Origin: Dehalococcoidia bacterium
Lineage (GTDB): Bacteria > Chloroflexota > Dehalococcoidia > Lucifugimonadales > HRBIN23
Assembly: GCA_025060295.1 (NCBI GenBank)
Contig: JANXCH010000006.1
Location: forward strand, 5,257-69,256
Length of the DNA stretch: 64,000 nt
Direction of reading: 5' to 3'
Every line of letters starts with the position of its first letter. Within the stretch, counting starts at the first letter, position 1. A program made the translations under genes and the position numbers. The notes under the pieces are model-generated. The model worked only from the letters and a program-made list of their open reading frames with translations, had not been told where the DNA came from and made no database searches. This document shows positions 1 to 14,886 of this stretch, in pieces.

Positions 1-196
1 TGCGGGAGAGGGTGGCATAGTACCGGGGGACCCCCAGTTGTCCTGTGGGGAGAGCGTGGATGTAGCGGAGCAGGTGCGTATTCTTCCGGCACTGCTCTTG
101 CACCTCGGGTGTGAGGGAGCGGAACAGGGGGCACTCAAAGAGGTGCTCCTCCGTTTCGGGGGCGTGCGTGGGAATGGCGACGCTGTGGGTGGTCAT
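1..196 (-). CDS. arlI: Archaellum assembly ATPase ArlI/FlaI, first 65 codons only (gene runs off the left edge)
   Basis: Own translation from ATG at 196: MTTHSVAIPTHAPETEEHLFECPLFRSLTPEVQEQCRKNTHLLRYIHALPTGQLGVPRYYATLSR, open to position 1. It starts 9 nt after the arlH stop, behind a GGGAAG SD-like motif. The CP.F..L...HLL.Y...LP...G.P.Y pattern matches my memory of FlaI N-termini. Too short to be certain. Confidence 0.55.
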   Translation of the reverse strand, partial: MTTHSVAIPTHAPETEEHLFECPLFRSLTPEVQEQCRKNTHLLRYIHALPTGQLGVPRYYATLSR

Positions 197-205
197 AAGC
201 TTCCC

Positions 206-919
206 TTATGCTTTGGCCTTGGTGAAGGGGATGATGCGCATACCCCAGCCCGGTTCCACATCAAAACTGATGATGTTGCCGGTGGTTTGCTCGGCACCCC
301 GCACTTTGGAAGCCACCAGCACTCGCACCACCCGCTCCCCCAGGTTTTCAATTCCCAAATGCAAATGGGCATCACAGAGGGAACTGATGCGCACCAGAAG
401 GCTTTCACTGAAGGCGTGGGAGTGGGCAGCCACGACGATGCTGGTTCCGTCATTGCAGATGCTTTTACATTCCTCAAAGAAGGCGATGACCTCCTCGGGG
501 GCGGAGTGAACGACGAAGGAGGTGATGGAATCTATGGCCACCAGGTCCCTTTTCCGCTGGGCGCGGAGAGCGGTGAGGAGGTCTTGGAGGGTGCGCTCCC
601 AGCGAATCTTGCCCTGCATGGCTTTGATGGGGTAAACCTTCAGTTTCCCCAAGAGAAGGTAGTCCGTAACATCTTGATTGAGGCTTTGCATCTGACGCAC
701 CAGGCTCTTGACCGTGTTCTCCGTGGTCAGCAGGGTAACGGTGAAGCCCCCTTTGAGGGAGCCCCAAAGCATCTGCTGGATGAGCACCGACTTGCCCGAA
801 TCCGATTGCCCCTCCACCAGCACGAGCGAGCCGGTGGGAATGCCCCCGCCTAACTTCTTATCTATCTCCGGGTTACCAGTGGAGATGATGCGTTGGCCTT
901 TGAGTGCGGTGGGTGCCAT
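206..919 (-). CDS. arlH: Archaellum protein ArlH/FlaH (single-domain KaiC/RecA-like ATPase)
   Basis: 237 aa. NPEIDKKLGGGIPTGSLVLVEGQSDSGKSVL (Walker A) and DLVAIDSITSF (Walker B-like). AAGGAGG SD 6 nt upstream of the ATG. Sits between the arlG-like and arlI-like genes as in archaeal arl operons. Confidence 0.8.
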   Translation of the reverse strand: MAPTALKGQRIISTGNPEIDKKLGGGIPTGSLVLVEGQSDSGKSVLIQQMLWGSLKGGFTVTLLTTENTVKSLVRQMQSLNQDVTDYLLLGKLKVYPIKAMQGKIRWERTLQDLLTALRAQRKRDLVAIDSITSFVVHSAPEEVIAFFEECKSICNDGTSIVVAAHSHAFSESLLVRISSLCDAHLHLGIENLGERVVRVLVASKVRGAEQTTGNIISFDVEPGWGMRIIPFTKAKA

Positions 920-1042
920 TAGCAGCCTCCTTGGGCAACGGTGTGGTGCGCGGCGTGCACACCCTGCCAGGGGATTTTGAAGTGTCGTCCCCTAGCATAG
1001 GGGGTGTAGGCACGCATATCGGACGGCGACTGCCACCTCCCA

Positions 1043-1585
1043 TTAGTCGCAGCGCGGGTCTATCCCGGTGAAGAAGGTGGACACCGCCACCCCGTTGGCA
1101 GTCGCCACGACGACCTGGTTGGCGCTGGTAGTGTTTGCACTTGGGGACAAACGGAACTGCAGCTTCACCTCCTCTAGGGGGTCCAAAAGGGTGGGTTGAA
1201 AACGCTCGGGGATAGCGTTCTCCTGGTGGATGTAGATGCCCTCCACCGTCCACTGGTTGTTGCCAAGATAGGGGCCGGGGGTATAAACCAAGCGCTTTTG
1301 GTGGTAGGTGCCGGCGGTGTCGTAATACTGTACGAACACATCCCATCGGGGGAAGTGGAAGAGGGGCACCTCCCCCGTGTTCTTCAGCACCACATATACC
1401 TGGTGCCCCGTGCTGGAGGTGCATACCGCCCCCAGCCGGCTCCGCACGGTCTGGGCCATACGGGTCTGTTCCCTTTCCCAAGCATCGGCCAGTCGGTGCA
1501 GAGAGGCGAGGGCACTGTGGCCCACAAAGGCCACGCTGGCCAGCAGAAGGGCGATGCTGACCAGGCTTGTTATGGCGCTGACCAT
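1043..1585 (-). CDS. ArlF/ArlG (FlaF/FlaG)-family archaellum protein; position suggests ArlG
   Basis: 180 aa. One N-terminal hydrophobic helix (AITSLVSIALLLASVAFVG), then a beta-rich domain with VVLKNTGEVPL...WDVFV, as I recall for FlaF/FlaG stator proteins. 12 nt downstream of the preceding paralogue. Confidence 0.65.
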   Translation of the reverse strand: MVSAITSLVSIALLLASVAFVGHSALASLHRLADAWEREQTRMAQTVRSRLGAVCTSSTGHQVYVVLKNTGEVPLFHFPRWDVFVQYYDTAGTYHQKRLVYTPGPYLGNNQWTVEGIYIHQENAIPERFQPTLLDPLEEVKLQFRLSPSANTTSANQVVVATANGVAVSTFFTGIDPRCD

Positions 1586-1597
1586 GCCGCACGGCCC

Positions 1598-2110
1598 CTA
1601 GTAGCTGAACCATTGCTCCGCGTGGGCTCCTGTGGGCGTGATGACCTTGACCAAATATGTGCCCGAGGGTTGGGGCTCGGCGAAATGAATGGAGATCTTG
1701 AGGGTAGCCATGCTTTTCCATTCGGTGTCGTTTTCCAGGGTGTAGGACCAGCTGGGGAATGCCCCGCCCGCATCGCCCACATAGGGGACGCGCAGGAAGG
1801 AGCCGGGCCTGCCGTAGAACACATCCACGTCGGTGATGCCCAGAATGCGACTACTCCCCACATTCTTCACCCAGAGCGTTACATCAAAGAGGCCGTCGCC
1901 GTCGGTGTCCTGCCACGTGCCGCCGGAGTCCAGTTCCCCTGTGGCGAACACAATGCTGATGTGGGTTTCAATGCGCTCGTTCATCTGTTGCGCCACATTG
2001 ATGATGGCGTTGCCTCCCCGCACAACCGCAGGGTACACACTACGCATCACCACTAAGGTGGCAATGACGCCAGCAATGATCAGCAGAACAGTGCTGATGG
2101 CTTTGTCCAT
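1598..2110 (-). CDS. ArlF/ArlG-family or archaellin-like protein; position suggests ArlF
   Basis: 170 aa. N-terminus MDKAISTVLLIIAGVIATLVV fits a class-III (type IV pilin-like) signal pattern (K-A-I-S-T-V). It is followed by a beta-rich domain with LWVKNVGSSRILGITDVDVFYG. Confidence 0.65.
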   Translation of the reverse strand: MDKAISTVLLIIAGVIATLVVMRSVYPAVVRGGNAIINVAQQMNERIETHISIVFATGELDSGGTWQDTDGDGLFDVTLWVKNVGSSRILGITDVDVFYGRPGSFLRVPYVGDAGGAFPSWSYTLENDTEWKSMATLKISIHFAEPQPSGTYLVKVITPTGAHAEQWFSY

Positions 2111-2161
2111 GCCTTATTGCTCCAGGCGACGCCATCACGGTGATGCCTCACAGAAGGCCCT

Positions 2162-2710
2162 CTAGCACAGCACATGCCCTGGCTCCAGGCGTGTCCATCC
2201 GTGGGGGAACGCCTTCTGGTAGGTGCGTAGGTTCTCCACAGCCACCTGTGCCAAGGCGCGATAGCGCGCAGGATGGCTGCGCAGGTAGTGCTGCAGAACA
2301 TCCACCGGGATGGCGACGGCCTGCACGTCCCCGAGGGCTGTTACGGTGGCCGGATGAGGAGCACCGTCCACCAGGGAAAGGAGGCCGATGTCGGCTCCGG
2401 GTCCCAAGAAATGTACAAAAGCCCAGAAGTCTCGGGAGCCGGGCACGGGCACCTCCATCACGGCGGCGGCTCTGCCTTCGGTCAGGAAGAGCACAGCATC
2501 CACAGGGCTACCTTGCTGCACCACAACGGTCTCCATAGGGCAACGCAGCCAGTGGGCGCGGGCCAGCAGATGCTCCAACTCCTTGCTGGAGATGGAGCGC
2601 AGGAGCCTATTGGTGCGCAAAACGCGCCATCTGTGCTCCTCGTATGACTGGGAAGGAGAGTGCTGGAGGAAACCGTCGGTGGCCGGCGGTGCGGGACGGG
2701 CCTTATGCAT
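2162..2710 (-). CDS. Stand-alone cyclic-nucleotide-binding (CAP effector) fold protein, no output domain
   Basis: 182 aa. Core VVVQQGSPVDAVLFLTEGRAAAVMEV...FLGPGADIGLLSLVDGAPHPATVTALGDVQAVAIP matches the cNMP-binding beta-barrel pattern. GAGGAG SD 8 nt upstream. 51 nt upstream of the arlF-like gene on the same strand. Confidence 0.75.
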   Translation of the reverse strand: MHKARPAPPATDGFLQHSPSQSYEEHRWRVLRTNRLLRSISSKELEHLLARAHWLRCPMETVVVQQGSPVDAVLFLTEGRAAAVMEVPVPGSRDFWAFVHFLGPGADIGLLSLVDGAPHPATVTALGDVQAVAIPVDVLQHYLRSHPARYRALAQVAVENLRTYQKAFPHGWTRLEPGHVLC

Positions 2711-2935
2711 CAGCAGTGCTCCTCTGATGACGCTGATTCCAGGATGCCCAGGAGGTAGTTGACAGAAGGAGAGGGCATCCCCTTACCTGTTCCGTCGTTA
2801 TCCTTCAAAGAGGGGTGGGGAAGTCCTGGGTAGCCGAGAAGGGCAAGACCTACAAGCCCAGTAAGGTAAAGCCTGTGGTGGGGGGATGGCGGAATTGGGC
2901 GCAGTTGAACCCAGCCGCCACACTCCCTCTGGTTC

Positions 2936-2964
2936 TTGCCTGGACGCGGTTAGTGTGCTAAGCT
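2936..2964 (+). promoter_or_regulatory. Possible sigma70-type promoter for pyrF (TTGCCT-17-TAAGCT), implying a very short or absent leader
   Basis: Consensus-like hexamers with 17-nt spacing. The -10 ends 7 nt before ATG 2972. Pattern match only. Confidence 0.25.
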
Positions 2965-2968
2965 GGCG

Positions 2969-3835
2969 GTGATGGCCACAACCCCACAATCCTTTTTCGC
3001 CCGTCTGGAGTCCTGCGCCCAGGCTCATCGCAGCCTTCTGTGCATCGGCCTAGACCCTGATCCGGCTTCGCTCCCCATACCTGACCTCACGGCCTTTCTG
3101 ACGGGAGTGATAGAAGCCACTCAAGACCTGGTGGCTGCCTATAAGCCCAACCTGGCCTTTTATGAAGGGCTAGGGGCCGAGGGCTGGAAGGCCTTGGAGG
3201 CGGTGCGTCGGGCCATTCCCCCGTCCATACCCGTGATCGCCGATGCCAAGAGGGGGGATATCGCCTCCAGCGCCCGGTGGTATGCCCGTGCCCTCTTTGA
3301 TGTATGGGGTTTTGACGCCGTTACCGTGAACCCCTACTTGGGCCAGGACAGCGTTGAGCCATTCCTGACATACGCGGATCGGGGCGTGTATCTGCTCTGC
3401 CGCACTTCCAATCCCGGTGCCCGAGATCTGCAGGACTTGGTGTTCACCTCGCCGTACGGTGGCGAGAGCCTCCCCCTTTATCAATGGGTTGCGCTATGCG
3501 CCCAGGCGTGGAACACCTATGGCAATGTGGGCCTTGTGATGGGGGCCACCTACCCCGAGGAGATGGCCCAGGTGCGTGCCCTCTGTCCTACCCTTCCCTT
3601 ATTGGTGCCCGGTGTGGGTACCCAGGGCGGACAGGTGGAGCAAGTGGTGCAGAAAGGCTTGGCCATTCACGGTCTGGGGATGATCATCAACGTGTCGCGG
3701 GCTGTGCTGTATCCTGGGGGCAGCGGGAGTTCGTGGCAGGAAAGGGTGCGTCAGGCGGCGCAGGCATGGCGGGAACGCATCACTTCTGCTTTGGAAAAAG
3801 CAGGGCGGGGGTGGGGGGATGCGCCCTCCCCTTGA
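2969..3835 (+). CDS. pyrF: Orotidine-5'-phosphate decarboxylase, type 2
   Basis: LLCIGLDPD, AAYKPNLAFYE, VIADAKRGDIASS motifs. Start is either GTG 2969 or ATG 2972. Confidence 0.85.
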   Translation: MMATTPQSFFARLESCAQAHRSLLCIGLDPDPASLPIPDLTAFLTGVIEATQDLVAAYKPNLAFYEGLGAEGWKALEAVRRAIPPSIPVIADAKRGDIASSARWYARALFDVWGFDAVTVNPYLGQDSVEPFLTYADRGVYLLCRTSNPGARDLQDLVFTSPYGGESLPLYQWVALCAQAWNTYGNVGLVMGATYPEEMAQVRALCPTLPLLVPGVGTQGGQVEQVVQKGLAIHGLGMIINVSRAVLYPGGSGSSWQERVRQAAQAWRERITSALEKAGRGWGDAPSP

Positions 3836-4061
3836 TATCCGAGTGGGGGATGTGCTGGTGTTGCGCAAACCCCACCCCTGTGGGGGAAGCGCCTGGGAGG
3901 TCTACCGAGTGGGGGCGGATATCGGCCTGCGCTGTCAAACCTGTGGGCGGCGGGTGGTGCTCCCTCGTTTTCGGGTGGAGGGTCGGGTGAAACACCTCCT
4001 GCGCCCTGCTCCAGGAAAGCCTGTGCCTACCCCGCGTGAGGGTGAAAAAGGGGGTAGTTAG
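3819..4061 (+). CDS. DUF951-family small protein
   Basis: 80 aa. VGDVLVLRKPHPCGGSAWEVYRVGADIGLRCQTCGRRVVLPR matches the DUF951 pattern (vGD.v..kK.HPCG...W.v.R.GaD....C..CgR). Overlaps the pyrF end by 17 nt. Confidence 0.7.
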   Translation: MRPPLDIRVGDVLVLRKPHPCGGSAWEVYRVGADIGLRCQTCGRRVVLPRFRVEGRVKHLLRPAPGKPVPTPREGEKGGS

Positions 4062-4090
4062 CTAGGGTATCTGGGTGCCAGCAAGGGGGC

Positions 4091-4119
4091 TTGCATACCA
4101 CGGGCAAAGGCAGTATACT
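4091..4119 (+). promoter_or_regulatory. Sigma70-type promoter TTGCAT-17-TATACT
   Basis: Near-consensus hexamers with 17-nt spacing, about 110 nt upstream of the zinc-ribbon gene start. Confidence 0.4.
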
Positions 4120-4232
4120 GCGCCCGATTGCTCCCCGGCAGAGAGGCGGGGAGTGCGGGCACGGTGCGGTTGCCCGGCAAACACCAATGGGGCAGGAGTA
4201 GGTCTCGGCCCAACACCCTCAGGAGGAGTAGC

Positions 4233-4544
4233 GTGCCATTTGCGGACAAGACCCTGACCTGTCGGGACTGCGGGAACCAGTTCGTTTTCACGGCGGGCGA
4301 GCAACAGTTTTACCAGGCGCACGGGCTTCTGCACGAGCCGGCCCGCTGTCCCCCCTGCCGGGCGGCGCGCCGGCAGAGCCGCGCCACGAGCGGGAACTCG
4401 GTTGAGGGCAACCCCGTGCCCCGTCGCACCTTCCCGGCCATCTGTGCCCAGTGCGGTCAGGAGACCCAGGTGCCCTTCCAACCCCGGCAGGGACGCCCCG
4501 TATATTGTAGCTCGTGCTTTGCTAACCTGCGAGGGACGCGCTAG
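4233..4544 (+). CDS. Zinc-ribbon protein (two CxxC...CxxC units, zf-trcl-like)
   Basis: GTG start 5 nt after AGGAGGAG. DKTLTCRDCGNQFVFTAGEQQFY...RCPPCR and AICAQCGQETQVPFQPRQGRPVYCSSCF. The longer track ORF from 4128 lacks an SD. Confidence 0.65.
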   Translation: MPFADKTLTCRDCGNQFVFTAGEQQFYQAHGLLHEPARCPPCRAARRQSRATSGNSVEGNPVPRRTFPAICAQCGQETQVPFQPRQGRPVYCSSCFANLRGTR

Positions 4545-4633
4545 ACCCTGTGCCCATTGGGTTAGTAGGGCGTATCCCGCTCCGCCCTTTTGGCCTCCCG
4601 CCTGTGGGGCATCCTGGGGCCTAGGGTGTTCTG

Positions 4634-5515
4634 ATGCTGCTTGGTGATGCGGCGGGCTTGGGGTCAGCCTTTTGCTGGGCCTGGGGAGGGGTGATCGGCC
4701 GCCTCTTGGCCCGCCGCCTCGGGGTTGTGGCCACCACCGGGTTCCGCTCCACTTTGGCGGCCATTCTCGCCTTCGGGGTCGCCTTCGGGTTGGGACGGGG
4801 AGAAGCCCTCCTGCATCTGCCCCTGGTGCCTTTGGCGGTGCTCCTGGGGTCTACCCTAGTCATGCTCATGGGGGAGACGAGCTTCCTCACAGGCCTGAAA
4901 GTGGACTATGCCTCCCGAGTGTTTGCCGTCGCCTCCAGCGGGTACATCTTCATCAGCCTGCTCCTGTCGGCTTTCCTCACCCCGGAGCGCCTCCATTGGG
5001 CTACTGCCATAGGCGGTGTGCTGGTGGCAGGGGGAATAGGCCTTCTGTTCAGCCCTGGGGAGTTCCGGTCCTTTTTACGCGGCATGCATCTCGGGGGGTT
5101 GGGCTATGGGCTAGGTGCGGCGCTCTTTTGGGCCATCGGGAGCCTGGGTGCCAACTGGGCGGTGGACTGGGTGGATGTGTTCCTGGCCCACGCCCTGCGG
5201 ATGGCCCTCATCGGCCTGCTCCTGGTGCCCTTCTCCGTGCGTCAGCAAGGGTCGTTCTCCCGCCTGCTGGCCGACCGGGTGAGCCTGGGCCTGCTGGGGG
5301 CGGGTGCTGTGGCGGCCTATGGCTCGGGCCTGCTTTTCCTGGTGGCCCTGCGCTATACAAGTTTGGGGAATGCGGTGGTGCTCAGTTCCGTAGCGCCCAT
5401 CTTCGTGGTTCCCATAGCCCGTTGGGTGGGGCGGGAGCGGGTCACCTGGAGGTTGGTGGTGGGGGTGGTAACCACCGTGGTGGGGGTGTGGGTGGCACTG
5501 GTACCTGCCCTGTAG
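4634..5515 (+). CDS. EamA/DMT-family transporter
   Basis: 293 aa, about 9-10 hydrophobic helices, two EamA-like halves. Confidence 0.75.
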   Translation: MLLGDAAGLGSAFCWAWGGVIGRLLARRLGVVATTGFRSTLAAILAFGVAFGLGRGEALLHLPLVPLAVLLGSTLVMLMGETSFLTGLKVDYASRVFAVASSGYIFISLLLSAFLTPERLHWATAIGGVLVAGGIGLLFSPGEFRSFLRGMHLGGLGYGLGAALFWAIGSLGANWAVDWVDVFLAHALRMALIGLLLVPFSVRQQGSFSRLLADRVSLGLLGAGAVAAYGSGLLFLVALRYTSLGNAVVLSSVAPIFVVPIARWVGRERVTWRLVVGVVTTVVGVWVALVPAL

Positions 5516-5581
5516 GGTCAACCGATGGCACCTACCCGTGCTCCGGTGTAGAATAAAAACAGGGTTTCCAGCGGAGGGGGT

Positions 5582-6340
5582 ATGGCAGGCCATTCCAAGT
5601 GGGCACAAATCAAGCATCAGAAGATGGCGGCCGACGCCCGACGGGGCCAGTTATTTACCAAACTCGCCCGGGAGATCACCATCGCCGCCCGCCAAGGAGG
5701 CGGGGATGTGCAAACCAACCCCCGCCTACGCCTGGCGGTGGAACGGGCACGGGAAGCCAATATGCCCATGGAAAACATCCAGCGGGCCATCCGTCGGGGC
5801 ACGGGCCAGGGGGAGGAGCAGACCCGCCTGGAGGAGGTGGTCTACGAGGGGTATGGGCCGGGGGGGATAGCCATCCTGGTGCAGGCGGTAACTGAGAACC
5901 GTAACCGCACCGTTTCGGAGATTCGTTCGGTGCTGGAGCGGGGTGGAGGGAAGATGGGGGGCGTGGGGTCGGTCTCCTGGCTCTTTGAGCAGAAGGGTGT
6001 GCTGACCCTGGAGGAGCCCAACCCCCGGCGGGCGGAGAGCATCGCCCTGGAGGCCATTGACCTGGGTGCCGAGGACTTCGTTTTGGACGGCAGTTTCCTG
6101 GAGGTGCGGTGCCCCCCCGAGCGCTTTGAAGCCCTGCGTAAAGCCCTAGAGGAGAAGGGCATTACCTTCGCCTCGGCCGAGTTGGCCTTGGTGCCCAAGA
6201 CGACAGTGCCCCTGGACCCCGCCACTAGTGAGCAGGTCGTCCGCCTCCTGGACCGCCTGGAGGACCTGGACGATGTACAAAAGGTCTATACCAATGCCGA
6301 TTTCCCCAACGAGGTGCTGGAAGGCTACCGTGCGGCCTAG
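5582..6340 (+). CDS. yebC: YebC/PmpR-family transcriptional regulator
   Basis: MAGHSKWAQIKHQK...RLRLAVERAREANMPMENIQRAI. Confidence 0.9.
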   Translation: MAGHSKWAQIKHQKMAADARRGQLFTKLAREITIAARQGGGDVQTNPRLRLAVERAREANMPMENIQRAIRRGTGQGEEQTRLEEVVYEGYGPGGIAILVQAVTENRNRTVSEIRSVLERGGGKMGGVGSVSWLFEQKGVLTLEEPNPRRAESIALEAIDLGAEDFVLDGSFLEVRCPPERFEALRKALEEKGITFASAELALVPKTTVPLDPATSEQVVRLLDRLEDLDDVQKVYTNADFPNEVLEGYRAA

Positions 6341-6350
6341 GGGGTGAGGT

Positions 6351-6857
6351 GTGCGGGTCCTGGGGATTGACCCAGGCACTCTGCGGTTGGGCTATGCCCT
6401 GGTGGAGGCCCAGGGGGACACGGTGCGCCTGGAGACCTGCGGTATCCTGACTGCTCCGCGGCGCGCTCCGTTGCCGCGGCGGTTGTCGGCTCTGTATCGT
6501 GCCCTGGTGGAGACCACTGAGCGCCTGTCCCCCCATGTGGTGGCGATAGAGGAGCCTTTCGTGCCCCGACGGGAGCAGGCCGTGGCGGTGCGCACCGCCA
6601 TCGCCGTCGGGCAGGCCCAGGGGATCGCCTTCCTCGCCGCCGATGGTTTGCCGTTAGCCACCTACGCCCCCGCAGTGGTGAAGCAGGTGGTGGCCGGTCA
6701 CGGGCGGGCTAGCAAGGGCGAAGTGGCCGAAGCGGTGCGGGTGGTGTTGGGATTGTCGGCCTCTCCTGCCTCTCTAGACAGCGTGGATGCCATTGCTATC
6801 GCCCTGTGCCATTGCATCCTGGTCCAGGGGCGGGAACGCCTGGGGGTGGCCCCGTGA
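6351..6857 (+). CDS. ruvC: Holliday junction resolvase RuvC
   Basis: MRVLGIDPGTLRLGYALVE..., 168 aa, directly followed by ruvA. Confidence 0.9.
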   Translation: MRVLGIDPGTLRLGYALVEAQGDTVRLETCGILTAPRRAPLPRRLSALYRALVETTERLSPHVVAIEEPFVPRREQAVAVRTAIAVGQAQGIAFLAADGLPLATYAPAVVKQVVAGHGRASKGEVAEAVRVVLGLSASPASLDSVDAIAIALCHCILVQGRERLGVAP

Positions 6858-7441
6858 TTCGGGCGGTGCGGGGGAAACTGGAGGCGATCGGTCAGGATAC
6901 GGTGGTGGTGCAAGTCGGCCCCGTGAGCCTGGAGGTGGGAGTGCCAGCCTCGGTCATTCCCACCCTGGGGCCTGTAGGCTCCGTGGTATGTCTGTACACC
7001 ACTTTGTTCGTGCGGGACGAACGGCCTGTTCTGTTCGGTTTTCCGACCGAGGAGGGGAGGCGTCTTTTTGAATTGCTTCTAACGGTGAACGGGATTGGCC
7101 CGCGCCTGGGGATGGCTCTTCTCGGCCACTTATCCCCCCAGGAGATCAGCCGCGCCATCATACGGGGGGATGTGGATGCCCTGGCGCAAGCCCCCGGCGT
7201 GGGACGGAAAACGGCATCCCGCATCGTATTGGAGTTGCGGGAGAGGCTGGCCAAAAGTCTGTCCCCTGTCCCTGTTGACCTCTCTGACCAGCAGGACCTG
7301 GTTTCAGCTCTGCTGGCCCTGGGCTATTCCCGTGCGGAGGCCCAGGAGGCTCTGCGGGCCGTTCCCCAAAGCCCGGCCCTTCCCTTGGAGGAGCGTCTCC
7401 GCCGTGCCTTGGAGCATCTGGCACACAAGACCTCCTCGTGA
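6854..7441 (+). CDS. ruvA: Holliday junction branch migration protein RuvA
   Basis: GTG start overlapping the ruvC stop (GTGA). VIRAVRGKLEAIGQDTVVV..., HhH motif APGVGRKTASRIVLEL. The track start at 6806 would overlap ruvC by 52 nt. Confidence 0.9.
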   Translation: MIRAVRGKLEAIGQDTVVVQVGPVSLEVGVPASVIPTLGPVGSVVCLYTTLFVRDERPVLFGFPTEEGRRLFELLLTVNGIGPRLGMALLGHLSPQEISRAIIRGDVDALAQAPGVGRKTASRIVLELRERLAKSLSPVPVDLSDQQDLVSALLALGYSRAEAQEALRAVPQSPALPLEERLRRALEHLAHKTSS

Positions 7442-7495
7442 TAGGCTGGGAACATTGTCCACTGGTATACTGCTTCTAAACAGCAGGGCAGAGCC

Positions 7496-8569
7496 ATGAG
7501 TAGCCCGGAACAGCTCCTCGCCTTGTTGGACGACGCGGCCCATCGCGCTGCGTGCGACCCTTCGGGTTTTTGGACACGTATCGCCTCTCTGCCGGACCAG
7601 ATAGCCCAGGCGCGGGAGGCGGTGGGGGAGGTGGTGCTCTCCCGGGCGGTGCGGGCGAGCACGCGCATTCTGGTGGTGGGGATGGGGGGGTCGGCTATCG
7701 GGGGGGATCTTCTAGCCAGCCTGGCGGAGGCGCGCGGGGGGCCCCAGGTGGTGGTGTGGCGGGACTTCGGCCTGCCCGCGTGGGTGGACCAGCACACCCT
7801 TGTGGTCATCAGCACTTATTCCGGGGAGACGGCCGAGACCCTTTCTGCCTTCCAGAAGGCTTTGGGCAAGGGTCTGCCTATCGTGGTGATCACCTCAGGG
7901 GGGCGGGCAGCCCAGTGGGCGGTCCAGCATCGGATCCCCCTTCTGCGCATCCCCTACAAAGGGGAACCGCGCACGGCGGTGGGGTGGCTGTTCTTCGGTC
8001 TTTTGGCACTTCTGGAGCGTGCGGGGCTGTTCCCGGGCATTCCCGCCTCCCACTGGGGCGAGACCCTGGACCTGCTGCACACACAGACGCAGGCTCTCGC
8101 CTGTGCTACCCCGGCATCCCAGAACAGGGCCAAAATCCTGGCGGCCAGCCTCTACGGGAAAGTGCCGTTGGTCTGGGGAGGAGGGTTCCTGAAGGGAGTT
8201 GCCCACCGCTGGAAGACCCAGGTCAACGAGAACGCCAAACTGCCCGCTTTCGCGGAAACCATTCCCGAGATCTTCCACAACGCGGTGGAGGGAATGGCAG
8301 GCGGGCTGGAGCACTGGGGAGTGCTGGTGCTGGCGTCGGTCTTGTTGGACCCCGAGCATCAGCGCCGCGTGGAGGCGTTGGTGGACCTGTTAACAAGGCG
8401 GGGGATATGGTGCCAACGGATAGAGGGGCAGGGGGAAAGCATGCTCACGCAAGTGGCCGGTTTGCTGTTCCTGGGGGATTGGACGAGTTATTACCTCGCC
8501 CTCCTTTACGGACGAGACCCGGCACCCGTGCCCACCATCACCGCTTTGCGCCAACAGCTAGGGGTCTAG
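7496..8569 (+). CDS. Bifunctional phosphoglucose/phosphomannose isomerase (SIS family)
   Basis: VVGMGGSAIGGD, VISTYSGETAETL, 357 aa. Confidence 0.8.
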   Translation: MSSPEQLLALLDDAAHRAACDPSGFWTRIASLPDQIAQAREAVGEVVLSRAVRASTRILVVGMGGSAIGGDLLASLAEARGGPQVVVWRDFGLPAWVDQHTLVVISTYSGETAETLSAFQKALGKGLPIVVITSGGRAAQWAVQHRIPLLRIPYKGEPRTAVGWLFFGLLALLERAGLFPGIPASHWGETLDLLHTQTQALACATPASQNRAKILAASLYGKVPLVWGGGFLKGVAHRWKTQVNENAKLPAFAETIPEIFHNAVEGMAGGLEHWGVLVLASVLLDPEHQRRVEALVDLLTRRGIWCQRIEGQGESMLTQVAGLLFLGDWTSYYLALLYGRDPAPVPTITALRQQLGV

Positions 8570-10207: not shown

Positions 10208-11572
10208 CTACTGAACGGGACGCCAGCGGGTGCCCTGGGGAGTATCCTCCAGGACGATACCCAAGTCCAGGAGGCGAGAGCGAATACGGTCAGCCAGAGC
10301 ATACTGGCGTGTTTTGCGAAGTTCGCCGCGCACCTCTACCAGCAGGTCAATAAAGGGGCGGGCGGTCAGATCGGTTTTGACGGGCTCCCGCAGGGTCAGG
10401 CCCAGGGTGCCAGCCAACTGGCGCAAGGTCTCTATGCCGTGCACTACCGAGGCCCCCCCTTCGCGGGCGCGGTTGAGTTCCCGCGCCAGGTCGAACAGGA
10501 CGGCCAAGGCTTGGGGGGTATTCAGGTCGTCATCCATGGCCTGGGTGAAGCGCTGGACAAAGGGAGTGGGGTCAAAGGGGGGGCCATCGGCGGGGCCAGG
10601 GCCTTCCCGTAGGGCAGCCCGCAGGCGCTCCACGGCGCGCTCGGAGGAGGCCACACCCTCCTCGCTCCAGGTGAGCGGGGAGCGGTAGTGGGAGGAGAGG
10701 AAGAACATCCGCAAAGCATCGGGGGAGAAGCGCGCCAACGCTTCTTTGATGGTTACCAAGTTGCCCAACGATTTGCTCATTTTGTCCAGGCCCAGGCGTA
10801 ACAGGCCGTTGTGCACCCACCAGCGCACAAAGGGCTCCTTCCCCGTGTAGGCCTCCGACTGGGCGATCTCGTTTTCGTGGTGGGGGAAGATCAGGTCTTG
10901 CCCACCCCCGTGGATGTCCAGGGTCTCCCCTAGGTAGCGCAAGGACATAGCGGAGCATTCGATATGCCAGCCCGGGCGTCCCTTGCCCCAAGGGCTATCC
11001 CACCAGGGCTCCCCGGGTTTAGCGGCTTTCCACAGGGCGAAGTCCATAGGGTGTTCCTTGCCCGCTTCAGGCTCCACCCGTGCCCCTGCCATCATCCCCT
11101 CTAGGGTGCGGTGGCTCAGTTTACCGTAGTTCTTGGCCGTCAACACTCGGAAATACACATCCCCTTGCGACTCGTAGGCGTGCCCCTTCTGTATGAGGCG
11201 CTGAATCATTTCAATCATCAGGCCGATGCTTTCTGTGGCGCGGGGGTATATGTGCGCCCGTTGGACATTTAGGGCGTCCATATCCTCAAAGTACTCGGCG
11301 ATGTAGCGGTCGGCCAGTTCCTGTGTGGTCAGGCCCTCCCGCTGGGCCCGCTGGATGATTTTGTCATCTATATCGGTGAAGTTTTGGACATGGCGGACCT
11401 TCCAGCCCCGGGCCTCCAGCCAGCGGCGGAGCACATCAAAGTAGACATAAGACATCGCGTGGCCCACATGGGACGGGCTATAGGGGGTGATGCCACACAC
11501 GTACATCTTGACTTCCCCTTCCAGGGGGGCGAAGTCGCGTTTTTGGGCGGTTAGGGTATCGTAGAGCCTCAT
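10208..11572 (-). CDS. cysS: Cysteine--tRNA ligase
   Basis: CGITPYSPSHVGHA (HIGH) and KMSKSLGN motifs. Confidence 0.95.
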   Translation of the reverse strand: MRLYDTLTAQKRDFAPLEGEVKMYVCGITPYSPSHVGHAMSYVYFDVLRRWLEARGWKVRHVQNFTDIDDKIIQRAQREGLTTQELADRYIAEYFEDMDALNVQRAHIYPRATESIGLMIEMIQRLIQKGHAYESQGDVYFRVLTAKNYGKLSHRTLEGMMAGARVEPEAGKEHPMDFALWKAAKPGEPWWDSPWGKGRPGWHIECSAMSLRYLGETLDIHGGGQDLIFPHHENEIAQSEAYTGKEPFVRWWVHNGLLRLGLDKMSKSLGNLVTIKEALARFSPDALRMFFLSSHYRSPLTWSEEGVASSERAVERLRAALREGPGPADGPPFDPTPFVQRFTQAMDDDLNTPQALAVLFDLARELNRAREGGASVVHGIETLRQLAGTLGLTLREPVKTDLTARPFIDLLVEVRGELRKTRQYALADRIRSRLLDLGIVLEDTPQGTRWRPVQ

Positions 11573-12051
11573 ACCTGCTCCTCTAGCAGGGCTACAGCAT
11601 AGGCAGCGATGGCCTCCTGCTGGCCGAGGGGACCAAGCCCTTCAGCGGTCTTGGCTTTGATGCTCACGTGCTGGACGGGCACACCTAAGGAGTGTGCCAA
11701 CTTCTGGCGCATGGCGTCAAGGAAGGGGCGCAGGTGGGGGCGTTCGGCGATAAGGGTGCAGTCCAGGTTGCCCAGCCGATAGCCCTGGCGGTGGAGCATC
11801 TGCATCACCTGGGCCAGAAGCCCCAGGCTGTGGGCATCTTTGTAGCGCGGGTCGGTGGGGGGGAAGTGGGTGCCAATATCGCCCAGGGCGGCGGCCCCCA
11901 GGAGGGCGTCGATGATAGCGTGGGTAAGGGCGTCCCCGTCGCTGTGGCCCAGGAGCCCCCTGGGGAAAGGGATTTCCACACCACCCAGCACCAGCCGCCT
12001 CCCCTCCACCAGGCGGTGGATGTCCCAGCCGAAGCCGATACGCGTCCTCAT
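11569..12051 (-). CDS. ispF: 2-C-methyl-D-erythritol 2,4-cyclodiphosphate synthase
   Basis: IGFGWDIHRL...GHSDGDALTHA. 4-nt overlaps with both neighbours. Confidence 0.95.
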   Translation of the reverse strand: MRTRIGFGWDIHRLVEGRRLVLGGVEIPFPRGLLGHSDGDALTHAIIDALLGAAALGDIGTHFPPTDPRYKDAHSLGLLAQVMQMLHRQGYRLGNLDCTLIAERPHLRPFLDAMRQKLAHSLGVPVQHVSIKAKTAEGLGPLGQQEAIAAYAVALLEEQV

Positions 12052-12758
12052 CCCGAGGGCTCCTGCGCCGAGGCTTTGCGGGCACGCAGGACGGCCTCAG
12101 CCAAGGGAATGTCCTCCACGGTGGTTACCTTGAGGTTCCCATAGTCCCCCAGGACAACCTTGACGGGCACACCCATCTTTTCCACCATCGTGGCGTCGTC
12201 GGTAACCGTCTCGTGCACCTGTTGGTGCGCCTTCTCCAAGAGGGCGCGGCGGAACACCTGGGGCGTCTGCACCATCCACAAGCGCTCCCGCGGGAGGGTC
12301 TCCACCACCCACAGGTCGGCGTTGACCATTTTGACGGTGTCCTTGGCAGGGACGGCCGCGATGGCGGCACCGGTGGTGGTGGCGGCACCCAGTGCCCTCT
12401 CCACGAGGTCGGGTGTCAGGCAAGGGCGGGCGGCATCGTGGACGACGATCCATTGGCACCGGGTGGGGAGGGCCTGTAAACCGTGGCGCACCGAGTCCTG
12501 CCGCCGGGCACCCCCCATACAGACCCCCTGCACTTTTGCCCATCGCCCACTGCGGAGCAAGGCGGTTCCCTGCGCCAAGTTATCGGCGCTGAGGACTACC
12601 ACCACCGTGTCCACGGAGGGGGCGCTCTGCAAGGCGTCTAACACCCAGGCCAAGGCGGGTTGTCCGCCGAGGGGGACGAAGACCTTGTCTACCCCGCCCA
12701 TGCGCTGGCTCTGACCTGCGCCCACCACAATAGCCCCTACAGCCTCACCCTGAAACAT
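12048..12758 (-). CDS. ispD: 2-C-methyl-D-erythritol 4-phosphate cytidylyltransferase
   Basis: AIVVGAGQSQRMGGVDKVF. ATG 12758 preferred (GGGGAG SD) over the TTG track start at 12794. Confidence 0.9.
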   Translation of the reverse strand: MFQGEAVGAIVVGAGQSQRMGGVDKVFVPLGGQPALAWVLDALQSAPSVDTVVVVLSADNLAQGTALLRSGRWAKVQGVCMGGARRQDSVRHGLQALPTRCQWIVVHDAARPCLTPDLVERALGAATTTGAAIAAVPAKDTVKMVNADLWVVETLPRERLWMVQTPQVFRRALLEKAHQQVHETVTDDATMVEKMGVPVKVVLGDYGNLKVTTVEDIPLAEAVLRARKASAQEPSG

Positions 12759-13812
12759 CTGCTCCCCTGCTCTGGGCTTCCCGGGGCTGTGCAAACAGAA
12801 TACGCCCCGAGGCCGTCTGATGGGTGCGCATCACCACCACATCCACAAACTGGTTGATGTAGCGTTGGCCCCCTTCAACAACCACCATTGTGCCGTCGTC
12901 CAAAAAACCTACCCCTTGCCCTGGCTCCCGGCCCTCCTGGATAAGGCGCACCTGGAGCACCTCCCCAGGCAGAATCGGGGGGTGTAAGGCGGCGGCCAGG
13001 TCGTTGATGTTGATAACGCTCAGCCCCTGCCCCTGAGCTAAACGGGCCAGGGTGCTGTCGGCGGTAAAAACCGTTGCCTTCAGGCGCTGGGCCAAGGCGA
13101 GAAAGCGGGCCTCACTGCGCTGGTCGGCAGGCCTGTTGGCGTCCACAACGGTCAAGGCGATGCGACGCTCACGGCGCAGGCGCGCCCACACCTCCAAGCC
13201 CCGACGCCCTCGTGTCCGGTGCACTGCGTCGTTTGAGGCGGCGGTGCGCCGCAACTCGTCCAGCACAAAACGGGGCACCGCCAGCGTCTCCTGGAGCACA
13301 CCCGTTCCCACCAAAGAGGCGATGCGCCCGTCTATCAGGGCGCTGGCATCCAGGAGCACCACTCGTGGCGGTGTGCGCGACGCTTGGGCGAGGCGTTCCA
13401 ACCGGGGGAAGGCTTCCAGGAGAGCCTTCTGCCGCGCCAGGGCGACCCAGGCTCCCGCTACCCCTAAGAGGAGAGTGATGGCTAGGGGCAAGTACACCCC
13501 CAAAGCCCCAGGCAGGCGTGCCAGGGCAGGGGTTGCCAGGGCACCCATAGCGAGGCCGAGGATACTTCCCAACAGACTCAGGAAAAGGGAAAGGGGTGGG
13601 GCGTGTATCAGCCAACGGATGCCCCGCAGGAGGATTCCCAGACCTATCCCAGCCCCCGCACCCCACACCAGGGGGGTAAGTCCCGACCACCACCCCACCA
13701 CTAGGATACCAACGCCCGCCAGGAGCACCATACCCAGCCCTGTCCACCGCAGGGGACGCCTCCAGCGGACGGGCAGCTTCGGGCGGGGAGGGGCCAGTGC
13801 AGGGGTGCTCAC
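12745..13812 (-). CDS. PIN/TRAM-domain membrane protein (YacL-like)
   Basis: N-terminal TM helices, PIN (VVLLDASALIDGRI) and a C-terminal TRAM-like barrel. Conserved position upstream of ispD-ispF. Confidence 0.8.
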   Translation of the reverse strand: MSTPALAPPRPKLPVRWRRPLRWTGLGMVLLAGVGILVVGWWSGLTPLVWGAGAGIGLGILLRGIRWLIHAPPLSLFLSLLGSILGLAMGALATPALARLPGALGVYLPLAITLLLGVAGAWVALARQKALLEAFPRLERLAQASRTPPRVVLLDASALIDGRIASLVGTGVLQETLAVPRFVLDELRRTAASNDAVHRTRGRRGLEVWARLRRERRIALTVVDANRPADQRSEARFLALAQRLKATVFTADSTLARLAQGQGLSVININDLAAALHPPILPGEVLQVRLIQEGREPGQGVGFLDDGTMVVVEGGQRYINQFVDVVVMRTHQTASGRILFAQPREAQSRGADVSG

Positions 13813-13932
13813 ATCCGTACCCTCAATCAGGGTGCGCTGTGGGACGGGAACAGTGCATCGGGGATTTGAGGCACCACTGGGAGGTGGTGGGGCATGAAGG
13901 ACACCCCCATTCCCTCGCCGCGCGGAAGGTAC

Positions 13933-14151
13933 TTACTCTGCCAAGCGCACACTAAGGATAGAGATGAGCAAAAACAGCACCACTAAAACGATGGTGAACT
14001 GGAACAACACCCGCTCCAGTCCCCGCCGCACCCGAAAAGTGGACTCCGCCGAAGCGAACAGGCCTGTGCCTTGGCCCCGCACCTGCAGGAGCACAGTGAG
14101 GATAAGCAGGACCGAGACCAAAATTTCAGCAATGGCTAGGGTCGTTTGCAC
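13933..14151 (-). CDS. secG: Preprotein translocase subunit SecG
   Basis: 72 aa, two TM helices, LLQVRGQGTGLF loop. Confidence 0.8.
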   Translation of the reverse strand: MQTTLAIAEILVSVLLILTVLLQVRGQGTGLFASAESTFRVRRGLERVLFQFTIVLVVLFLLISILSVRLAE

Positions 14152-14247
14152 ATTCCCACTCCTGAAGAGGCGGATGGGGCAGAGGCGCTCTCCACCCCCC
14201 TAGGCTTATCATACCACTCTGCTCCGAAGCGTTCGAGGCCCCACCGT

Positions 14248-14886
14248 CTACACCTGCACCTGGCGATGGGGAATACGGCGTTTCTCAGCGCAGATAATGG
14301 CCTCCACGGCAGCCACCGCCTCGTCCACGCGCCCGTTCTCATTGAGGACCAGGTAGTCAAACAAGGGGAGAGAAGCCATCTCTTGGCGAGCGGTCTGCAG
14401 ACGGCGTTGCAAGGCTTCCGGGGTATCCGCACCCCGCTGATACAGCCGGCGCTCCAGTTCCGCCAGGGAGGGGGGTGTAACGAAGATGAACACCGCCTGG
14501 GGCACCAGACGGCGCAGGGTGGCCGCCCCCTGCACATCCACCCGCATCAGCACATCCCGCCCCGCTTGCAGGGCCTGGCGCACCTGCTCCCGCGGCACCC
14601 CGTAGTAATGCCCATACACCTGCGCCCATTCCAGGAAGCCCTGTCGGGCGCGGATACGCTCAAACTCCTCCTGGGATAGGAAGAAGTAATCCACCCCCTC
14701 CTGCTCATGGGGCCGTTTGGGACGCGTGGTGGCTGTTACAACAAAGTGGTAGGGGCGCCCCAGTTCCCGCATGCGGGCCAGGATGGTGTCTTTGCCGGCT
14801 CCAGACGGGCCCGAGAGCACCACCAGGAGGGGTTTGGGTTGGTAACAGGTCTGCAGAAGGGTCTGGGCCAGGAAGTCGTCAGCCAC
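14248..14886 (-). CDS. gmk: Guanylate kinase
   Basis: LSGPSGAGKDT P-loop, TTRPKRPHEQEGVDYFF. Confidence 0.9.
   Translation of the reverse strand: MADDFLAQTLLQTCYQPKPLLVVLSGPSGAGKDTILARMRELGRPYHFVVTATTRPKRPHEQEGVDYFFLSQEEFERIRARQGFLEWAQVYGHYYGVPREQVRQALQAGRDVLMRVDVQGAATLRRLVPQAVFIFVTPPSLAELERRLYQRGADTPEALQRRLQTARQEMASLPLFDYLVLNENGRVDEAVAAVEAIICAEKRRIPHRQVQV

Follow-up and report, generated by a model that had tools for sequence, protein, structure and literature searches.

Archaella in bacteria were described in 2025. Archaellum loci with the arlG-arlF (arl2) gene order are present in 243 of 3,780 Chloroflexota genomes, and Litorilinea aerophila swims with an archaellum (Sivabalasarma et al., Nat Microbiol 2025, PMC12488501). 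Swimming has so far been demonstrated for L. aerophila only. The Chloroflexota archaellum clade comprises Dehalococcoidia and Anaerolineae and is sister to Methanotecta; in Chloroflexota outside SAR202 the prepilin peptidase is of the bacterial PilD type, and a second, pilus-type transfer has entered two Anaerolineales genomes (PMC12488501). The distribution of archaella over the phylum has been mapped (PMC12488501; bioRxiv 10.64898/2026.05.11.724246), and for L. aerophila PilN and PilO have been put forward as a scaffold that crosses the envelope (PMC13319060). A whole motility machine has crossed between domains of life, and that discovery is already made. The locus analyzed here is one more example of exactly this kind and leaves the understanding of how archaella work unchanged. 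It is a well-resolved example from a divergent branch with few close relatives in the collections searched; each of its proteins is a singleton 90% cluster. A first-pass annotation, prepared from the sequence alone, had supposed that such clusters were reported for only a few Chloroflexota, which the published count contradicts.

The window, a stretch of 64,000 nucleotides, carries four co-directional minus-strand genes at positions 1..2110: arlG (1598..2110), arlF (1043..1585), arlH (206..919) and the start of arlI (196..1). We identify this region, with high confidence, as the promoter-proximal half of an arl2-type operon (arlG-arlF-arlH-arlI-arlJ) in a Dehalococcoidia chromosome, descended from the described archaeon-to-Chloroflexota transfer. 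The first three genes are complete ORFs of 170, 180 and 237 aa, exactly where the first-pass annotation had placed them in its run of four consecutive minus-strand genes. The nine-nucleotide gap it reported next is also found, between the arlH stop codon (208..206) and the arlI ATG (196..194), and the arlI ORF leaves the window after 65 codons. ArlG is an archaellum stator protein with an N-terminal transmembrane helix followed by an Ig-like beta-sandwich, and ArlF is a probable second stator protein of the same architecture. ArlH is a single-domain KaiC/RecA-like ATP-binding protein and the partner of ArlI, the ATPase that assembles and turns the archaellum. A consensus scan of positions 1..3100 returned no promoters, and terminators did not exceed the shuffle expectation.

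A public counterpart, contig L001 of assembly GCA_033580395.1, differs from the window by one mismatch over 7,768 overlapping bp and extends it to the left. Full-length arlI and arlJ lie immediately left of the window, followed by u148 (a 148-aa gene without credible family match in profile searches), an inverted module of an arlCDE-like gene and arlB, a LuxR-type regulator, a DUF5658 gene and a bacterial-type prepilin peptidase. Since this continuation carries the remaining arl genes and a prepilin peptidase, the machinery is complete. The archaellin gene arlB (L001 12444-13079, minus strand) encodes a protein with a Pfam score of 97.1 bits and a match to the archaellum filament entry 9i5h (E = 5.6e-38). 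MRNLFKTLKSVGRNQHG forms its leader and ITGLETAIILIAF comes next, which puts G at -1 and E at +5, and its mature N-terminus aligns with 9i5h at I18. The peptidase (L001 14867-15661) matches Peptidase_A24 (55.3 bits) and A24_N_bact (24.8 bits), and on these domain matches the predicted class III signal peptidase of the locus is of the bacterial PilD type. The arlCDE-like gene, u313 (L001 11422-12363, minus strand), matches Arch_fla_DE weakly in direct search (E = 0.18). In four jackhmmer rounds its product joins a family that fills the slot between arlB and arlG (54 of 59 ORFs), and the archaeal members of this family score 17-21 bits on Arch_fla_DE (threshold 21). The weak direct match and the family linkage together suggest an ArlC/D/E-like protein.

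The locus shares its host phylum with L. aerophila and the other Chloroflexota arl2 loci, and of the two classes that make up the published clade, Dehalococcoidia is that of the host. Also shared are the gene set (arlB, arlCDE-like, arlG, arlF, arlH, arlI and arlJ) and the bacterial PilD. The layout differs. In relatives, arlB and the arlCDE-like gene lie upstream of arlG, whereas here the two genes are downstream of arlJ on the opposite strand. PilD is described as encoded outside the locus (PMC12488501), whereas here about 1.8 kb separate the peptidase gene from arlB and about 4 kb separate it from arlJ. Here arlG is also preceded by a gene for a cNMP-binding domain. Compared with L. aerophila and its proposed scaffold, no PilN/PilO homologue was seen in the 17.5 kb locus. 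The gene order G-F-H-I-J, with arlG upstream of arlF, is of the arl2 type; related loci are alike in this, and archaeal arl2 clusters (Sulfolobus acidocaldarius, Archaeoglobus fulgidus, Methanotecta) share it, with three archaeal loci (L010, L077, L078) showing the same synteny. The archaeal clusters differ in host and envelope, and in having a PibD/FlaK peptidase instead of bacterial PilD. The first-pass annotation had called the order canonically archaeal; the first protein is ArlG and the second ArlF here, whereas the euryarchaeal order is arlF-arlG. A search of supplementary data of PMC12488501 found no mention of this genome by assembly (GCA_033580395), locus tag or protein accession.

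The three complete window proteins all find their best solved-structure matches in S. acidocaldarius (FlaG, FlaF and FlaH). ArlH scores 273.7 bits on the NCBIfam FlaH subfamily model NF004723 (cut-off 194) and 206 on the ArlH equivalog model (cut-off 215). In the PDB it matches S. acidocaldarius FlaH 4yds best, over the full length (E = 7.7e-33), and M. jannaschii FlaH 4wia next, and its Walker A (GQSDSGKS) and Walker B (LVAIDS) motifs align with those of FlaH. The string GGGIPTGSLVLVEGQSDSGKS, cited by the first-pass annotation as typical of FlaH, is present in the 237-aa protein, and NCBI names the exact protein ‘flagellar accessory protein FlaH’. A RecA-like core with Walker A/B is common to ArlH, circadian KaiC and RadA/RecA. 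We rejected a KaiC or RadA identity because ArlH passes the FlaH model and scores far below the cut-offs of the KaiC equivalogs (72.4 bits versus 408 and 22.9 versus 546) and of RadA (31 versus 403). Circadian KaiC has two tandem RecA-like domains in about 500 aa, whereas ArlH is a single 237-aa domain set in an arl operon.

With full-length ArlI (578 aa, from L001), the FlaI equivalog of NCBIfam gives 662.7 bits (cut-off 550). ArlJ, also from L001, is encoded directly after arlI. It matches only ArlJ/FlaJ families in NCBIfam (342.6 bits), all under the equivalog cut-offs (400-570), and Pfam T2SSF in two stretches (37.9 bits, threshold 25.2); these matches point to ArlJ at the family level and not at the equivalog level. 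The 180-aa protein reaches 23.5 bits on Pfam FlaF_Ig-like, under the 28.4 threshold. ArlF is its only NCBIfam match (E = 0.004, below the equivalog cut-off), and S. acidocaldarius FlaF 4p94 its best PDB sequence match (E = 0.0048). The AlphaFold model is of low confidence (pLDDT 58.4), with FlaF 4p94_B as best Foldseek match (E = 7.8e-7) and FlaG behind it. FlaF heads every one of these searches, in each case under curated cut-offs. Identification as ArlF is supported by synteny, the gene filling the arlF slot at 48 of 80 loci, and by precomputed PF22201 matches in close homologues (70-72% identity). The sub-equivalog scores of ArlF, ArlG and ArlJ, and of ArlH on its equivalog model, fit a divergent bacterial branch.

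For the 170-aa protein, ArlG is the only NCBIfam match (E = 5.8e-7, under the equivalog cut-off), and S. acidocaldarius FlaG 5tug is the best PDB sequence match (E = 0.0024). Its AlphaFold model (pLDDT 87.8) has a helix at residues 2-48 followed by a beta-sandwich, and the top Foldseek match in the PDB is FlaG 5tuh_A (E = 1.2e-8, TM 0.86 over the target). The 372 homologues include L. aerophila FKZ61_014880 (170 aa, 43% identical) and proteins named ‘archaellum component FlaG’ by JGI. The gene occupies the syntenic arlG slot beside arlF at 62 of 80 related loci, archaeal arl2 loci included. A KNxG...DVF signature noted previously is real and conserved, with K82, N83, D96, F98 and G100 invariant over 65 homologues. 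The modeled N-terminal helix and FlaG-fold Ig-like domain agree with a stator ArlG.

The first-pass annotation had also suggested that this protein could be a processed, archaellin-like subunit, on account of a class III signal-like motif (DKA-ISTV). As a minor archaellin it would belong to the filament and not to the stator. The protein passes the Pfam Arch_flagellin gathering threshold (47.5 bits versus 29.5) and is named ‘flagellin’ by NCBI, but PF01917 spans FlaF and FlaG besides archaellins (homologues carry the JGI label ‘FlaF/FlaG flagellin family’), and the sole NCBIfam match is to ArlG. The model can also be aligned with structures of archaellins (9eq7, E about 2e-6, TM 0.67 over the query), which rank behind FlaG. 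Cutting after A4 would leave the N-terminus MDKA-ISTV with K at -2 and, next to the cut at -1, a small residue. Of 78 archaellin orthologues examined, 76 have the LE[TA]AI motif, and every one of these carries G at -1 and E at +5; their leaders measure 9-24 aa. Among the 46 ArlG orthologues starting M[DE]K, none has G at position 4 and none has E at the would-be +5. In 30 of these 46, position 4 holds V, T, I or M, residues that we take to be incompatible with a class III cleavage site. The string is a conserved ArlG N-terminus lacking G(-1) and E(+5). Tsai et al. 2020 (cited in PMC13319060) report that Sulfolobus ArlG loses part of its N-terminus upon secretion; ArlF and ArlG have no class III signal peptide (PMC13319060). 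We rejected the processed archaellin as very unlikely because the class III site is absent and the best model match is FlaG; the true archaellin lies outside the window.

In a neighbor-joining tree of 79 ArlI sequences, four of them archaeal, the query groups with L002 and L003 (96/100) inside the Chloroflexota sequences, which split from the archaeal ones in 100/100 replicates. Among the matches listed, ArlI is 69% identical to that of the closest species-representative locus and 52-54% identical to those of archaeal loci. The T2SSE/T2SSF superfamily, of which ArlI and ArlJ are members, is broad, and with a pilus-type transfer into two Anaerolineales genomes on record (PMC12488501), the locus might be read as a non-rotating archaeal-type type IV pilus, adhesive or bindosome-like. 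Against this, ArlI passes the FlaI equivalog cut-off and reaches 202.7 bits on the bindosome BasE model, where the cut-off is 1000. ArlH, ArlF and ArlG, to our knowledge specific to archaella, are all present. The archaellin matches an archaellum filament entry, and ArlI nests with Chloroflexota archaellum loci. On the FlaI score, the presence of ArlF, ArlG and ArlH and the similarity of ArlB to 9i5h, we rejected a non-motility pilus as highly improbable and retain the motility archaellum.

The following mechanism for this archaellum is modeled on the archaeal system and L. aerophila. The bacterial-type PilD would cut the class III leader of ArlB after G17. An ArlI hexamer would dock on the ArlJ membrane platform and spend ATP on filament assembly first and on rotation second, while ArlH would bind ATP and modulate ArlI. 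ArlG and ArlF, each with one N-terminal helix as anchor and an extracytoplasmic Ig-like domain, would form a stator coupling the motor to a rigid layer of the envelope, presumably through a binding partner in the envelope, so that torque turns the filament. The ArlC/D/E-like protein would be a cytoplasmic accessory part. By the same analogy, the host probably expresses and assembles this archaellum and swims with it.

Compared with the orthologous locus L084, dN/dS is 0.108 for ArlG, 0.221 for ArlF, 0.051 for ArlH, 0.080 for ArlI and 0.139 for ArlJ, figures that are approximate at a partly saturated dS of about 0.8-1.05. Purifying selection acts on the arl genes. The arlB module has an arrangement that differs from most relatives, as might be expected of a decaying relic out of use, but every gene is intact, dN/dS is low when measured on a relative with dS of about 1, and the rearranged layout is kept in a second species; decay is hardly credible. 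Locus architecture can shift, with the arlB module inverted and PilD nearby, while purifying selection persists on the remainder of the operon. With the FlaH subfamily score (273.7 versus 194), the Arch_flagellin score (47.5 versus 29.5) and dN/dS of 0.05-0.22, the cluster is beyond chance, and the four window genes are genuine archaeal-type archaellum genes. The central proposal of the first-pass annotation, archaellum motor genes (two arlF/G-like genes, arlH and arlI) in a bacterium, is borne out by profile, PDB and model matches. It also withstands the refuting condition set with it, since 206..919 fits FlaH far better than KaiC or RadA and arlI and arlJ adjoin the window on its left.

The host is an uncultured Dehalococcoidia-class Chloroflexota bacterium known only from MAGs. 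At NCBI the exact proteins are listed under ‘Dehalococcoidia bacterium’ or ‘Chloroflexota bacterium’. RuvA, RuvC, YebC, PyrF, F-type ATP synthase subunits, DnaX, YbaB, RecR, YbeY, IspD/IspF, SecG and Rex, encoded on the same DNA, confirm the bacterial housekeeping context that had been recognized from the sequence. Scanning the whole window for Rfam families and tRNAs found nothing, so it offers neither a 16S nor a tRNA as host marker. An assembly or binning artefact, with an archaeal fragment mis-joined to bacterial DNA, has next to no probability: the organism is known from metagenome assemblies alone and GC in the arl region (0.60) is slightly under that of most of the window (0.62-0.66), but the PyrF-cNMP-arlG junction of the window recurs in GCA_033580395.1 and, for another species, in two more assemblies (L084, NCBI; L085, Logan), the peptidase of the locus is bacterial-type (A24_N_bact) and the nearest ArlI relatives among the matches listed are all Chloroflexota MAGs, and we rejected a chimera on the repeated junction. 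Flank queries by tblastn (RuvA, RuvC, YebC, EamA, DUF951, PyrF, HpcH and MrrN) had no match in any of the 80 related loci. Flank synteny thus gave no placement of the host, and the setting of the arl cluster differs from lineage to lineage.

The gene between PyrF and arlG (2162..2710, minus strand) lies 51 nt upstream of arlG and encodes a stand-alone cNMP-binding-domain protein of 182 aa as an ORF and 152 aa in the NCBI call. Its product matches Pfam cNMP_binding (46.7 bits) and has no HTH domain. It likewise adjoins arlG in L084/L085 (64% identity), L086 (46%) and L089, and consecutive locus tags show the same for bacterium HR23; it is absent from all 80 species-representative loci. Neither this gene upstream of arlG nor the inverted arlB module is mentioned in the archaellum papers compared. 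The cNMP protein may be part of the archaellum machinery. We tentatively raise the possibility, which we hold to be rather unlikely, that a stand-alone cNMP-fold protein was recruited into the archaellum operon of a small, possibly thermophilic Dehalococcoidia sub-lineage (the source MAG, GCA_046294495.1, bacterium HR23 and two MAGs at greater distance), where it may serve as a signal input particular to this lineage or as a regulator associated with the motor. If so, it could partly make up for the CheF adaptor, which Chloroflexota lack; a conserved cNMP gene by arlG bears on the signal route to the archaellum motor in bacteria without CheF. The canonical phosphate-binding Arg-Ser/Thr-Ala motif is His-Pro-Ala in this protein, so its ligand may not be a cyclic nucleotide. 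The dN/dS of the gene is 0.20.

Three complete open reading frames lie on the minus strand at the left end of the window, as first annotated, at 1598..2110 (170 aa), 1043..1585 (180 aa) and 206..919 (237 aa). Nine nucleotides beyond the stop codon of the third (208..206), an ATG (196..194) opens a frame on the same strand that continues for 65 codons to the window edge.

The 237-aa protein, which contains the P-loop string quoted in the first-pass annotation, is identified as ArlH. Its score exceeds the cut-off of the NCBIfam FlaH subfamily model (273.7 bits against 194) and falls narrowly short of that of the ArlH equivalog model (206 against 215); among other RecA-like models, KaiC gives 72 against 408 and RadA 31 against 403. 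The closest solved structure is Sulfolobus acidocaldarius FlaH (4yds, E=7.7e-33), which aligns end to end, including Walker A (GQSDSGKS) and Walker B (LVAIDS).

The 170-aa protein is identified as ArlG. It passes Pfam Arch_flagellin (47.5, threshold 29.5), a family that takes in FlaF and FlaG too, and its only NCBIfam match is ArlG. S. acidocaldarius FlaG is the top match in a PDB sequence search. An AlphaFold model built with 65 homologues (pLDDT 87.8) has a helix spanning 2-48 and, after it, a beta-sandwich; its top structural match is FlaG (5tuh_A, E=1.2e-8, TM 0.86 over the target), with archaellins and FlaF behind. The KNxG...DVF signature noticed earlier is real: a 65-sequence alignment of homologues shows no variation at K82, N83, D96, F98 or G100. 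Evidence that the 180-aa protein is ArlF is weaker but consistent. FlaF is its best match, under threshold for FlaF_Ig-like (23.5 bits, threshold 28.4), at E=0.004 for NCBIfam ArlF and at E=0.0048 for FlaF 4p94 in the PDB. Its AlphaFold model, from only five homologues, is of low confidence (pLDDT 58.4) and matches FlaF (E=7.8e-7) above FlaG.

An exact-protein look-up led to a contig extending leftwards (L001; JAVQUM010000006.1, GCA_033580395.1), which differs from window positions 1..7768 by one mismatch. In this assembly the window DNA is broken at about 7768, one part lying at the start of JAVQUM010000006.1 and the other at the end of JAVQUM010000001.1; the window itself therefore stems from the second, more contiguous assembly (138.6 kb contig, NZ951 locus tags). 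Downstream of arlH, L001 carries full-length arlI (578 aa; FlaI equivalog 662.7 bits against 550), then arlJ, whose sole matches are ArlJ families, with T2SSF over the Pfam threshold. The gene identities therefore give the order arlG-arlF-arlH-arlI, and the original interpretation, archaellum motor genes in a bacterium, was essentially right. A KaiC/RadA-type ATPase with no FlaI or FlaJ genes to its left is clearly contradicted, as FlaH models win and both ArlI and ArlJ are present.

The other components sought leftwards, an archaellin (arlB) and a prepilin peptidase, are also on L001. On the strand opposite to arlG-arlJ, 11422-13079 encodes a 313-aa protein and then a 211-aa archaellin (Pfam 97.1 bits; 9i5h, E=5.6e-38, mature end aligned at I18). 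Next, at 13722-15661, come genes for a GerE/LuxR-type regulator, a DUF5658 protein and a prepilin peptidase of the A24 family that has the bacterial N-terminal domain. The 313-aa protein joins a family that, in related loci, fills the slot between arlB and arlG (45 of 59 ORFs in jackhmmer round one, 54 of 59 at convergence), and archaeal members of this family touch the Arch_fla_DE threshold. It is most likely an ArlC/D/E-type component. The 148-aa protein after arlJ (10851-11297) has no family match. It is Pro/Ser-rich with a short C-terminal helical segment, and recurs in a second species (L084, 13053-13499; 51% identity, dN/dS 0.21) and in L002 (7671-7841), a locus related by ArlI.

The first-pass annotation had also proposed that the 170-aa protein could be a processed archaellin-like subunit, cleaved at a class III site in MDKA-ISTV. 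The motif xxxLE(T/A)AI occurs in 76 of 78 archaellin orthologues, all 76 with G at -1 and E at +5, after leaders of 9-24 residues. An M(D/E)K start is found in 46 of 63 ArlG orthologues, with V (19), A (16), T (7), I (3) or M (1) at position 4. Because none of these 46 has G at position 4 or E at the would-be +5, we reject the site; MDKA-ISTV is the conserved ArlG N-terminus. According to PMC13319060, neither ArlF nor ArlG has a class III signal peptide, although ArlG of Sulfolobus is shortened during secretion by a different route.

The bacterial setting holds. RuvA, RuvC, YebC and PyrF are encoded on the same DNA as the arl genes, as are F-type ATP synthase subunits (a, c, delta, alpha, gamma, epsilon), DnaX, YbaB, RecR, YbeY, Rex, IspD/IspF, SecG and CysS. 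An archaeal piece joined to bacterial DNA during assembly is ruled out, since the junction from pyrF through a cNMP-binding-domain gene to arlG recurs in independent assemblies and in the second species (L084 at NCBI, L085 in Logan). Proteins identical to these are on record at NCBI from two MAG assemblies, one labelled 'Dehalococcoidia bacterium' and the other 'Chloroflexota bacterium'; there the ATPase bears the name 'flagellar accessory protein FlaH', and ArlG is called 'flagellin'. Scans of the full 64 kb gave no tRNA gene and no Rfam family reaching its gathering score.

Such clusters had been thought known from only a few Chloroflexota, which is incorrect: archaellum loci are published for 243 of 3,780 Chloroflexota genomes, with arlG-arlF (arl2) order, a Dehalococcoidia and Anaerolineae clade sourced from Methanotecta-like euryarchaea, and demonstrated swimming and a solved archaellum structure for L. 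aerophila (Sivabalasarma et al., Nat Microbiol 2025, PMC12488501). A 2026 preprint analysed 226 Chloroflexota archaellum genomes (bioRxiv 10.64898/2026.05.11.724246). The present locus agrees with published Chloroflexota archaella in every respect tested and is a further example of them.

Scanning species-representative genomes with ArlI gave at least 80 loci, nearly all in Chloroflexota MAGs. Among the matches listed, the best identities are 69% and 66%, and the few archaeal loci reach 52-54%. A neighbor-joining tree (79 ArlI sequences, 543 columns) groups the query with L002 and L003 within Chloroflexota (96/100 replicates) and splits the Chloroflexota set from four archaeal sequences (100/100). 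Against L084, dN/dS is 0.05-0.22 for arlG, arlF, arlH, arlI and arlJ (dS ~0.8-1.05); judged by these substitution rates, the arl genes are kept by selection.

The usual order among the loci listed is arlB, (arlCDE-like), arlG, arlF, arlH, arlI, arlJ, (pilD). Whereas most relatives have the arlB/arlCDE-like module upstream of arlG, here it is inverted downstream of arlJ and convergent with the operon, a layout shared with L084. The 2025 paper places the peptidase outside the locus (PMC12488501), but in 27 of the 80 loci listed a PilD homologue is encoded no more than about 10 kb from arlJ. The GerE/LuxR-type regulator and small DUF5658 membrane protein recur beside arl loci (L001; L084, 16944-18894; a more distant MAG, L086, 16787-17644; L031, 881-1965), with a bacterial-type PilD also beside them in L001 and L084.

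The one element with some novelty is a stand-alone cNMP-binding-domain gene without an HTH domain (2162..2710, minus strand), 51 nt upstream of arlG. Homologues with 46-65% identity occupy the same position beside arlG in L084 (7214-7762)/L085, L086 (9389-9910), another distant MAG (L089, 4673-5188) and bacterium HR23; the L089 copy is part of the operon, flanked by the arlCDE-like gene and arlG. None of the 80 Chloroflexota and archaeal representative arl loci listed has the gene, and the text of PMC12488501 mentions no cNMP or cyclic-nucleotide element. The family comprises only eight 90% clusters, its arl-linked gene occurs in a small Dehalococcoidia sub-lineage, and one homologue (L088) has no arl linkage. 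The ligand is uncertain because the phosphate-binding motif R-[ST]-A reads H-P-A on sequence inspection, and any role in the archaellum operon is speculative.

By analogy with the archaeal system and L. aerophila, PilD would mature ArlB, and ArlI, modulated by ArlH, would assemble and then rotate the filament on ArlJ using ATP. ArlG and ArlF would form the stator and the ArlCDE-like protein the cytoplasmic part. No pilN or pilO genes were seen near the arl locus. ArlF orthologues, usually 165-180 aa, are twice as long (about 377-387 aa) in L035, L055, L058, L064, L065, L066 and L076 (labelled Anaerolineae, Aggregatilinea or Thermoflexus), which suggests that the stator protein of these loci carries an additional extracytoplasmic domain. 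Two Chloroflexota MAG loci carry a tandem arlI pair (L063, 8270-11686; L075, 8252-11674), and L031 has arlJ between arlF and arlH.
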